From positions 1 through 10,620 of the forward strand of contig JBGGMM010000241.1 in NCBI GenBank assembly GCA_041288045.1: a stretch of DNA of 10,620 nucleotides, in the 5' to 3' direction. Origin of the DNA: Pseudobdellovibrionaceae bacterium. GTDB lineage: Bacteria; Bdellovibrionota; Bdellovibrionia; Bdellovibrionales; Bdellovibrionaceae. The number at the start of each line of letters is the position of its first letter. The stretch's first letter is position 1. Made by a program: the position numbers. This document shows positions 1 through 3,000 of the stretch, in pieces.

Positions 1-3000
1 TAGAAAAGTCGCTGCATTATTCATTGGAAACGAAGTTGTGTTTCCACGATTTCTTTCGTAAAAACAGGATGTTGCTTTAAGCGGCGTAACACTCTGCGGC
101 GGTTCTCAGATTCTCGCATTGAGTACGCCAAATACCGCCCAGGCAGATAATTTAAGAACTAGTTATTCATTTGAATTTCAATTTATTCTAAGAAAAGCTG
201 TTCAATAAGTTTAGCCGTCGATCCAGTCCAAAGATCGCCAGTTCCAGTGCCACACCAAAGAGATAGAAAATCTGCGGAACCTTTAGCAGTCGATGCATTT
301 CGTATGTCCCGAGTAAAATTATTCTGAGCAGGAAACGGAAGAATTGCATTGGGTTTCAAATCCATTTCTTCCATAAAACGATTCACGAGTCCTCTCGCCA
401 ATCTACCTGAGAAAATACGGGTAAGTCTGGTCTTTCGCTCCTTTGACTCTAGAAGCTTGAATCGATAAGGTTCTGAAGTTCCAGCTTCTTGAACTGCTAA
501 AAACGCTGTCCCCATTTGGACGACATCAGCACCTGCTCGGAGAGCCATTGTCACATGATCTTTAGTCATGATCCCACCAGCAGCGATCAAGGGAACTTTG
601 ATTTTCCCTTTAACTTCTCTTAAGAGATCCAACATTGTGATATTGGGATCACTTGCTAACGGATCAAATATCCCTCTGTGCCCACCCGCTTCAACACCCT
701 GTAGGACAACGGCGTCGACACCAGAGTCTTCAAGAGCCAGCGCTTCCTCAGGAGTAGTAGCAGTTCCAATGGTGAACAAGCCCTGTTTATGTGCTTCTTT
801 AAGGTAATCATTCTGTAAAGTTCCAAATACGAAACTAAATGCATTCGGCCTGAGAGATAAAACAGCCTCAAACTGTTTGTTGAAATCTTCTTCATAAGGC
901 GGGCTCACCTTCGGCACAGGCAGACCCAGTTCACTTCTAAAATTTTTAGTCTGTTGGATTGCTTCCTGAAGGAGATCTTCTGAAACTTCAGGGATTCGGC
1001 TTGGAATAAACAAATTAATTAAAATAGGTTTTTTTGTTCGCACCCGAACCTGATTGGTCATTTCTTTGATTTTGTCAGGTGAAAGGTAGGCTGCACCGAT
1101 TGAGCCAAGGGCTCCAGATTCCGAAGCAGCAACAACTAAATCCACTGAAGAAGGGCCTCCAGCCATCGGGGCAACAATCAAGGGGACATTTAATTGGAGT
1201 GCATGCGTAAGCCGAGTATTGAAGTCCATATTGGTATGTTGAAGGCAGTTCACCTCTAAGTCATGGAGCAGCCTGTGAAACTTTCTGGTTCCCTGCAAAC
1301 TCGGGAACACAAAAATAAAAGGCATCGGGAACTACAACTTATTCTTTGATGATAGCAATCTGTTAATAAGCACAGCGACTTAGTTAGGCACCCATTCGGG
1401 AACAAGCATTCACGAAATCATCCACCAAGGAACGCCACTTCCTAATCTAGGATCCCGGATAAACCATTGGAGTACCTATCCGCGAATCCAATCCATGACA
1501 TCACCCCCAAGCTTAATCGCCAGAACTAAAAGAATAACTCCCGAAATCAGCGAAACGAAACGCATAGCTGTCGGGCTCTTGAGAAGACGACTTCCCATTG
1601 AAGCAAGCAACGCAAGGCCGAAGAACCAGATGGTTGAAAACGCTGAGGCTCCTGCTCCAAAGTAAAATCGCTCAGTCATTTCTCCGAATTTGGCAGAATA
1701 GCCACCAACCAAGACAACTGTATCAAGATAAACGTGCGGATTGAGTAGACTAAATCCAAGAGTTGTCAGAACGGTTTGCTTCATAGTGGTCGCCTGTTTT
1801 GAATCGAGCGAAATCTGAATCCCATTCTTTGCTTCCTTTAGTTTCAGAAATCCATAGAAGAACAGAAATCCGACTCCAACTATGCCAAGTCCAATTTTCA
1901 AAAGAGGAACTTGAACAAAGAATGTTGCCACGCCTAGCACTCCGACAAAAATAAGAAGCGTGTCACAGACGGAAGAGACAAAGGCGACTAGCAAATGCCG
2001 TTGCCTCCTAAGACCCGAGTTAAGAACAAAGATATTTTGGGCACCTAAAGCCAGAATCAAACTTGCTTGAAGGAAAAAACCTTGAACGAAGAGACTAAGC
2101 GATGACATGCGACCCCCTCAAGAGCCGTCTTTGCGAATCCTGGTACGGTTCTCCTCGTCAGGGACATTAGAAATGCCAAAATATTCGACTTGTTCGCCTA
2201 AGATAGCACGACACTAAACTTCATTTCAATCAGCAACATATCAAGCTGTGCGTACAAAATCTGTGGGACTCCGGAAGAACCATCATCCTAATTTACGTTA
2301 GTGGAATCAGAGACACCGTCTTAGCACTTCCAAGCCCTCATCAACGGTGGCAAGGTCAATATTCAGGGCAGGAAACATCGTAAATCCTTGTTCACCCTCG
2401 GATAAAATAAGCCCCTCTTCTTTGGTTTTTTCAACGATGTGTTGGCCATAGTCTTCACTTTCGAAATTCACTCCGATGGCAAGACCAAGATAAGAAAAGC
2501 GAGGTTCTTCCTTGAAGTCCATTTGCGATATTTGGTCGACGAGATAGTGACCCATTTCTTGGGTATTGCTCTCAAGAAAATTCCGGTTTTCAGAGTAATA
2601 GGAAAGTGTCGCCAGCGCAGCTTCCACACTGCGCGGATGCCAACCATAGGTTGAGTAATAGCTACTTTCATATCGCATGGCCTGAGAAACCTCTTCACTC
2701 ATTAGGACCGCACCCATAGGAGCAAAACCTCCGGTGATAGCCTTCCCCAAACAAAGGATATCTGGTTGCAAATGGAAATGTTCACACGCAAAAATTTTCC
2801 CGGTTCGACCGAAGCCCGTGGCCACTTCGTCGATAATCAAAACAGTCCCGGATTTTTTGCAGGCATCTTGAATAACATCAAAAAATTCTTGGCTCGGAAC
2901 CATGGCGCCGCGGTTGCAAATTACTGGTTCCATAATCAGGGCCGCGATATCTCGTTGTTGAAGACGATGAGCGACCCGTTCTGCTGACTTTCCGTCAAGA

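Follow-up and report, generated by a model that had tools for sequence, protein, structure and literature searches.

A guanidine-III riboswitch precedes a LysE/ArgO-family exporter gene in Bdellovibrionota: a rare, conserved association linked to gdx

A guanidine-III riboswitch lies directly upstream of a gene for a LysE/ArgO-family exporter in a 10,620-nt stretch of DNA from a Pseudobdellovibrionaceae bacterium (contig JBGGMM010000241.1; from here on, the window). The association is genuine, rare and conserved, is new for this known class of riboswitch, and forms part of an argO-(paiB)-gdx module. Three genomes, which carry the window and two loci that we label L030 and L032, together with two cases deduced from protein sequences, support the view that the LysE/ArgO-family exporter belongs to the guanidine-III regulon. 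On balance, and with modest confidence, we lean toward a guanidine-induced exporter of guanidino amino acids, for which guanidine would serve as an indicator.

The riboswitch was recognized as a match to RF01763 (cmscan) at window positions 2182-2119 on the minus strand, which covers the full model (1-67) and scores 41.7 bits against a gathering cut-off of 36, with a genome-wide E of 2.8e-7. Up to E 1 the window has no other Rfam match, and the genome has no other RF01763 match; the hit ends 10 nt before the start of the lysE open reading frame (2108-1476, minus strand), as the genome-wide survey's note had described. Because the Rfam model omits the pseudoknot, we tested it directly on 22 distinct cores from the same phylum, numbered as in the crystal structure (PMC5696562). 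Residues C6, G7, G17, A5, A19, C20 and G29, which include the A5/A19 pair and C20-G29, were invariant in 22/22 rows. P1 was 98.9% paired, with changes on both sides at 3/4 pairs; pair 3-22 is U-A in 12 rows, the window among them, and G-C in the other 10, and since the rows are kin, the shuffle counts for this covariation do not amount to probabilities. All 5/5 pairs of the window's P1 pseudoknot (1-4 with 21-24, and C20-G29) are standard. P2 was 84.4% paired across the 22 rows, and the window forms 6/7 of its pairs (12-18 with 35-41), the exception being an A14-C39 mismatch that is common to gdx-linked copies and unpaired there in 10/22 rows. The minimum-free-energy fold of the leader was no better than that of shuffles (z-score 0.13), as expected of a fold that does not score the pseudoknot. 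By its sequence, then, the RNA upstream of lysE is a genuine guanidine-III riboswitch, and it probably binds the ligand of its class. Available excerpts of PMC5696562 describe a class III aptamer that accepts small side chains and whose binding of arginine was not measurable. No other guanidine class scored above cut-off in the three riboswitch-lysE genomes; the L032 genome (G322) has a guanidine-II match at 30.2 bits, below the cut-off of 32.

Table 1. Features of the riboswitch-lysE unit, in window positions
Feature	Position	Strand	Basis or remark
Putative sigma-70-like promoter with extended -10	2200..2229	-	In the 125-nt space that follows the aminotransferase gene
Small 5' hairpin of the Rfam model	2163..2177	-	cmscan alignment; the lysE-linked copies in L030 and L032 have comparable arms
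Guanidine-III aptamer core, H-type pseudoknot	2122..2162	-	Numbering and contacts from PMC5696562
P1 of the aptamer core	2162-2159 with 2142-2139	-	Pseudoknot pairing
P2 of the aptamer core	2151-2145 with 2128-2122	-	Helix pairing
Ligand contacts	C6 = 2157, G7 = 2156, G17 = 2146	-	Crystal-structure numbering, PMC5696562
Predicted expression platform	2110..2127	-	3' strand of P2 able to pair with the Shine-Dalgarno region instead
ArgO/LysE-family exporter, 210 aa	1476..2108	-	Pfam and motifs; G22, Q24, D49, N123, D129

The alternative hairpin between the 3' strand of P2 and the Shine-Dalgarno sequence, which would represent the OFF state, has a predicted energy of -7.8 kcal/mol and lies 2 nt before the lysE start codon. 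Equivalent masking hairpins precede lysE in L030 (-9.5 kcal/mol) and L032 (-8.5 kcal/mol), and the Shine-Dalgarno sequences differ in all three copies. As modelled, the hairpin fits the translational ON logic proposed for the guanidine-III class. With the promoter-like site, lysE would have a leader to itself; the search gave 2 sites of this kind where 1.2 were expected, which by itself is not above chance. L030 and L032 have a similar -35/TG/-10 arrangement 29-37 nt ahead of the aptamer, found with a pattern composed after inspection of the sequences.

The 210-aa product of lysE matches Pfam LysE (PF01810; E 1.6e-32, 113 bits against a cut-off of 25.6) and contains motifs A, B and C along with two acidic residues. 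Its best NCBIfam models stayed below their cut-offs (TIGR00948 at 163.8 against 213.65, the ArgO model NF006801 at 143.4 against 298) and its identity to Escherichia coli ArgO is 34%; judged by its sequence the protein is ArgO-like, and we do not file it as ArgO. Neither Pfam nor NCBIfam returned an SMR match, and the protein has neither the fold nor the size (about 105-110 aa) of Gdx. In Corynebacterium glutamicum LysE, alanine mutants of five residues are reported to lose canavanine resistance (PMC11965370), and by motif and spacing, unaligned, these correspond to the five residues listed in Table 1. The same five residues occur without exception in the switch-linked (5), switch-less (15) and ArgP-linked (3) proteins compared and in E. 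coli ArgO. No alignment column separates the 5 switch-linked from the 15 close switch-less proteins, and nothing suggests that specificity changed upon capture of the switch. The conserved pocket would mark a working LysE protein and does not tell the identity of its substrate. ArgO and LysE are reported to export arginine and canavanine (PMC11965370), and Gdx to be selective against arginine, agmatine and creatine (PMC7695847), so far as excerpts of these papers go. The simplest reading would be a division of labour, in which Gdx handles guanidinium and the ArgO-like protein guanidino amino acids. A standalone B3/4 editing protein is absent from all 5 genomes tested, this one (83% complete) included.

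The association, which the survey's note had treated as a single instance, recurs. A joint pattern of the aptamer and the codons of the LysE G-x-Q-N motif, matched by 0/200 shuffles, found one other place in 185,579 species genomes: L030 (JAHBUS010000008.1), in a Bdellovibrionaceae MAG whose lysE is 78% identical. The order there is riboswitch (45.1 bits), lysE, a PF04299 PaiB-like gene, riboswitch (46.1 bits) and gdx; a tyrosine recombinase gene adjoins the cassette. A metagenome collection gave 0 matches to this pattern, which is strict and also misses L032. That locus came from a phylum sample of 401 genomes and belongs to another family; its lysE is 83% identical and its gene order is that of L030. 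The gdx-linked riboswitch copy of L032 scores 47.3 bits, and the lysE-linked copy 30.5 bits, below the cut-off, because of U18C; this change breaks a P2 pair, and the copy may be decaying. N-terminal extensions were present in 7 of the best 120 database homologues of the exporter, and in two of these the extension agrees with the translated aptamer, at 13/14 residues in P0002 and 12/14 in P0075, compared with at most 7/14 in 1500 random windows. These two entries would be gene calls that run through a riboswitch into LysE. When the peptide that P0075 derives from the riboswitch was used as a protein query, P0075 itself was the sole result out of 2 candidates.

Recurrent as it is, the linkage is rare, and we count its rarity against our best reading. 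A riboswitch stands directly upstream of lysE in 2/48 distinct homologue loci other than the window; close homologues occur in 13 of 384 genomes of the order, with the switch only at the window and the L030 sequence, and most close homologues (63-80% identical) have none. A pattern for the core gave 0 matches in viral contigs and blastn 0 against plasmids, and the one related locus found in metagenomes was without a switch. The neighbours of this LysE clade differ in nearly every genome. We considered the aminotransferase, nitronate monooxygenase and desaturase genes near lysE as parts of the unit and discarded them, as none was found beside the switch in other loci; that the neighbouring aminotransferase had no match at E 1e-60 in 5 genomes of the same genus is uninformative. 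On a tree of 17 rows, riboswitch linkage required 1 change (support 63/78 for the three DNA cases), and on one of 23 rows that includes P0002 and P0075 it required 2; both trees leave out long-branch and distant rows. An unfinished quick tree of 72 rows gave 3 changes, with unlabelled rows intervening. P0075 may represent a second capture of the switch, the 2 changes being weakly supported.

The 43-nt aptamer core is 38/43, 42/43 and 37/43 identical between the three DNA copies taken pairwise, compared with 33%, 39% and 29% identity at the fourfold-degenerate sites of lysE in the same pairs. A conserved core, silent sites near saturation in lysE and a retained masking hairpin together look like signs of selection. 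Because gdx has a switch copy of its own, the conservation seems to be on account of lysE, or else of paiB, which follows closely.

Gdx remains the usual partner of the riboswitch. RF01763 matches occurred in 22/151 genomes drawn from the order, and at 20/21 other loci an intact SMR/Gdx reading frame of 106-117 aa lies downstream, in agreement with the survey's note; the remaining locus (1/21) had a partial match and no SMR/Gdx frame called. With a model built from the phylum cores, we obtained 29 matches in 28/151 genomes of the family, 27 of which precede gdx and 2 lysE (the window and the sequence that is also L030). The model R1 was trained on the copies of the window, L030, L032 and the locus L103, and matches there by construction. 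As the note had also reported, this genome's own SMR gene, on contig C114, has no riboswitch. Its product had been taken as the counterpart of the relatives' switch-linked Gdx, yet it is only 42-57% identical to riboswitch-linked Gdx proteins, which are themselves 58-88% identical to one of their own members; it is therefore probably another gene and not the donor of the switch. We found no riboswitch-type gdx in the assembly, which is 83% complete and in which lysE is the only gene under a guanidine switch. Nor does the proposal of a switch moved from Gdx hold up, given that lysE and gdx each have their own in L030 and L032, which indicates that the switch was duplicated and kept.

A link between argO and gdx also appears under a protein regulator. 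A search for PaiB-like proteins, which found them in 52/401 genomes of the phylum sample, led to L095, in family f22, where an ArgP/LysG regulator gene (NF002964 at 270.5 bits, cut-off 197) is divergent from a group made up of lysE, whose product is 49% identical, gdx and paiB. The argO/lysE gene of L095 has no riboswitch. Of 14 loci from relatives of the L095 genome, 8 carry an ArgP-like gene in divergent orientation, and in 5 of these gdx falls within the 1.5-kb flanks; the ArgP-argO-gdx loci are kin, the five with gdx coming from 2 genera. One of these gdx genes, that of L103, comes with a guanidine-III-like core of its own, compensated in P1, that Rfam did not report. No ArgP/LysG protein scored over the cut-off in the three riboswitch-lysE genomes; in that of the window (83% complete), none is present in the locus and the best match reaches 63 bits against 197. 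Linked both beside ArgP and under the switches, argO and gdx appear to travel together under either regulator. The paiB gene is a looser partner of the module than gdx: about 10 nt at most separate lysE from the paiB behind it in L030 and L032, and L095 has the genes in a different order. The PaiB-like protein of the cassette has matches to PaiB, LnzB, NohD and piperazate synthases. Inspected by eye, its sequence retains four residues of LnzB/NohD: the heme His and its Asn (H68, N73) and the Thr/Lys pair (T113, K185; PMC12603108, PMC12576811). In the available text of PMC12576811, NohD cleaves N-OH bonds and PaiB is without known activity.

Under the reading that we favor, the riboswitch would act in vivo as a translational ON switch for the ArgO/LysE exporter. 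With no ligand bound, the 3' strand of P2 would mask the ribosome-binding site, and guanidine or a small substituted guanidine would lock the pseudoknot and thereby free it. The exporter would be one arm of a guanidino-stress module whose fuller form is riboswitch-lysE-paiB-riboswitch-gdx; Gdx would pump out free guanidinium, and the ArgO-like protein would pump out the guanidino-bearing amino acids that Gdx rejects, most plausibly canavanine-type toxic arginine analogues, with arginine as a co-substrate. Because the class III aptamer does not measurably bind arginine, the switch would sense a proxy and not the cargo, guanidine serving as the indicator of toxic arginine analogues. By analogy, this division of labour fits the proposal, made for CtdA, that guanidine or hydroxyguanidine indicates exposure to canavanine (PMC10018355, in excerpt) and the position of gdx within a canavanine degradation cluster (PMC9533460, likewise). 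The switch would stand in for the ArgP/LysG regulator that flanks argO-gdx in another family, and in the window only the riboswitch-lysE half would remain, or would have been assembled there. How a bacterium of a predatory lineage would encounter canavanine is left without explanation, which we count against this reading. Also against it, paiB, a riboswitch-type gdx and a standalone B3/4 protein are all missing from this genome, though the assembly is just 83% complete, the lysE-linked copy of L032 may be decaying, and the loci that join ArgP, argO and gdx are kin.

Several other explanations bear on the same observations. Export of free guanidinium or small substituted guanidines by the LysE protein, as a second fold beside Gdx, would be in keeping with reports that most exporters controlled by guanidine switches pump guanidinium (PMC12186494, in excerpt), with lysE as the only guanidine-switched gene of a genome in which riboswitch-type gdx was not found, and with a LysE Asp modelled at the arginine side chain (PMC11965370, in part). 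We consider it unlikely nonetheless: no alignment column is specific to the switch-linked proteins (5 against 15), the pocket motifs match those of ArgO, the separately switched gdx of L030 and L032 would make a second pump redundant, and this genome has another SugE-like SMR protein, at 123.1 bits against a cut-off of 126. Of the survey's suggestion of an exporter of guanidine or a guanidino compound, the place of LysE in the guanidine-III regulon thus stands and the guanidino-compound wording fits better, while free guanidinium is disfavored by the unchanged pocket and by a full cassette that already has Gdx. A three-gene pathway, to which we give a similarly low probability, would have the PaiB-like heme protein cleave an N-O guanidino compound (canavanine, hydroxyguanidine or similar), Gdx remove the freed guanidine and LysE export the substrate or the amino-acid product, with the switch sensing the product. 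The closeness of paiB to lysE in L030 and L032, its union with argO and gdx in L095, the retained heme-site residues and the N-OH chemistry of NohD would all suit it, and a PaiB-type step that cleaves N-O and releases guanidine would connect all three genes, although that is speculation and improbable. Against it, paiB stands beside lysE in just 2/30 of the best PaiB loci of the phylum sample; it was not found in this 83%-complete genome, in three wider argP-argO loci with intact flanks or in one contig-end locus; LysE or SMR genes occur in 0/2 annotated plasmid PaiB neighbourhoods (a third has no annotation); and a full-text search of the literature found no PaiB chemistry with guanidino substrates. 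A bolder form of this idea, in our estimate improbable, sees in argO-paiB-gdx a defence module, so far undescribed, that protects against guanidino antimetabolites with an N-O linkage, for example canavanine: a PaiB-family heme enzyme would cleave the N-O bond and free guanidine, Gdx would export it and the ArgO-like protein would export the intact amino acid, the whole being wired either to ArgP, which would sense the amino acid, or to duplicated guanidine-III switches, which would sense the product. If true, this would give PaiB a function and reveal a new biological source of guanidine.

The switch might instead be a passenger or relic, if a mobile lysE-paiB pair landed in a gdx leader and gained a duplicate switch, in which case the regulation would be of consequence for paiB alone, or for neither gene, and the window would be a leftover. 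Varying neighbours of the LysE clade, a tyrosine recombinase gene beside L030, the weakened L032 copy and a window without paiB and gdx could all be so explained. We regard this as rather improbable, since the aptamer is conserved while lysE silent sites are near saturation, the masking hairpin targets the Shine-Dalgarno sequence of lysE itself in 3/3 copies, gdx is served by a switch of its own, argO and gdx are also linked where ArgP is the neighbour, and P0075 may be a second capture. An assembly chimera or a chance match, the former raised in the survey's note, is by now largely refuted and highly improbable. The window does come from a soil MAG of low depth (about 5 for the contig in run X1), and its fold z-score is 0.13, the pseudoknot not being scored by a minimum-free-energy fold. 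However, one Logan contig, which probably derives from the source sample and is therefore not independent biology, spans 1705-2493 with zero differences, the same junction recurs in L030 and L032, and no core nucleotide is missing; we rejected the chimera on the spanning contig and the identical junction.

Guanidine-III switches have been thought to control almost only Gdx, and the ArgO-like link extends their regulon; being recurrent, it bears on the question of what guanidine signals in cells. It offers a cheap test of guanidine as an indicator of toxic arginine analogues, suggests that a protein regulator (ArgP/LysG) and a riboswitch substitute for each other at one gene pair, and points to candidate substrates for the PaiB family.

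We found no pairing of a guanidine switch with LysE/ArgO in the open full-text literature, a scope that leaves aside the gene tables of Sherlock and Breaker 2017, Nelson 2017, Salvail 2020 and Sinn 2021, and the available portions of a 2025 review (PMC12186494) and of Lenkeit 2020 (PMC7736828) contain no mention of LysE or ArgO. Additional file 8 of Weinberg 2010 assigns 42 ykkC-III first genes to COG2076 (92.5%), the arginase family (5%) and DUF839 (2.5%), and has a LysE/ArgO entry for none of the three ykkC classes. ArgO is, on the other hand, named among genes that co-evolve with gdx (PMC12623156, in excerpt). The closest known system is the guanidine-III (ykkC-III, RF01763) switch on gdx/sugE, with the same aptamer, ligand-contact nucleotides and logic of Shine-Dalgarno masking, and with the window's P1 subtype also found on gdx in many Bdellovibrionota; what differs here is the first gene, a LysE/ArgO exporter. 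CtdA and the Lactobacillus curiae GNAT protein are guanidine-riboswitch-controlled canavanine defences, with guanidine or hydroxyguanidine as the proposed indicator (PMC10018355, PMC12623156, both in part). Those are enzymes under class I or IV switches, whereas here a class III switch precedes an exporter with a presumed link to canavanine. MsiA belongs to the LysE family and is under LysR control. It is described as a canavanine exporter in excerpts of PMC9533460 and PMC12546413. The ArgP-ArgO system of E. coli and the LysG-LysE system of C. glutamicum share the LysE fold and motifs with the window protein (ArgO at 34% identity), and an ArgP/LysG-type gene flanks a sister clade in family f22; the window protein differs in scoring below the equivalog cut-offs, in its RNA control, in a genome without an ArgP/LysG protein over the cut-off, and in the linkage of its LysE group to gdx and paiB. 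A second transporter fold under a guanidine switch is not the novelty that the survey's note had made of it, because MATE (MepA) and PnuC-like transporters, which are not of the SMR family, have already been proposed as guanidine exporters under guanidine-IV (PMC7736828, in part). Those belong to another switch class and to folds unrelated to LysE, and the LysE family gives the more specific prediction because a guanidino-amino-acid substrate is known for it.

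The flanks of the riboswitch-lysE cassette, in its fuller form riboswitch-lysE-paiB-riboswitch-gdx, differ in all three genomes, suggesting that the cassette is mobile, and a tyrosine recombinase gene accompanies it at L030, the locus in a Bdellovibrionaceae MAG (Table). In the window, two desaturase-like genes are positioned upstream of the switch; the plus-strand gene scored 158 bits against an L-arginine gamma-hydroxylase model whose cut-off is 380, and these genes do not neighbour the switch in L030 or L097. On the other side, no terminator-like site was found between lysE and the nitronate monooxygenase gene; the Pfam match of the latter begins at residue 45, so its coding sequence probably starts downstream of the position given in the Table.

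Features in the window and at related loci
Feature	Location	Strand	Context
Nitronate monooxygenase family gene	window 183-1325	-	downstream of lysE
Fatty-acid-desaturase-like gene	window 3598-4566	-	divergent from 4681-5643 gene
Fatty-acid-desaturase-like gene	window 4681-5643	+	divergent from 3598-4566 gene
Tyrosine recombinase gene	L030:2379-3347	-	~630 nt upstream of cassette
tRNA gene, long variable arm	L029:695-783	-	~700 nt upstream of genome's own SMR gene
Guanidine-II-like match	L099 (G322:C9:52455-52507)	-	30.2 bits, cut-off 32
Guanidine-III-like core, P1 compensated differently	L103:164-205	+	upstream of gdx
ArgP/LysG gene, divergent argO-like lysE, adjacent gdx, paiB	L095:2650-5210 (G232:C10)

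Because the gene calls of two database LysE homologues, P0002 and P0075, run on through the riboswitch, the aptamer can be read in protein databases as an N-terminal peptide. The core at L103 gave no Rfam match up to E 1, which suggests that RF01763 misses guanidine-III variants in this phylum. No SMR-sized ORF was seen after the guanidine-II-like match at a 110-aa threshold.

At L103 and L105-L107, an argO-like lysE is divergent from an ArgP/LysG gene, with gdx adjacent; among these loci and L095 (family f22), paiB is part of the L095 arrangement. With L103 as the exception, gdx at L095 and L105-L107 apparently lies under a LysR regulator instead of a riboswitch.
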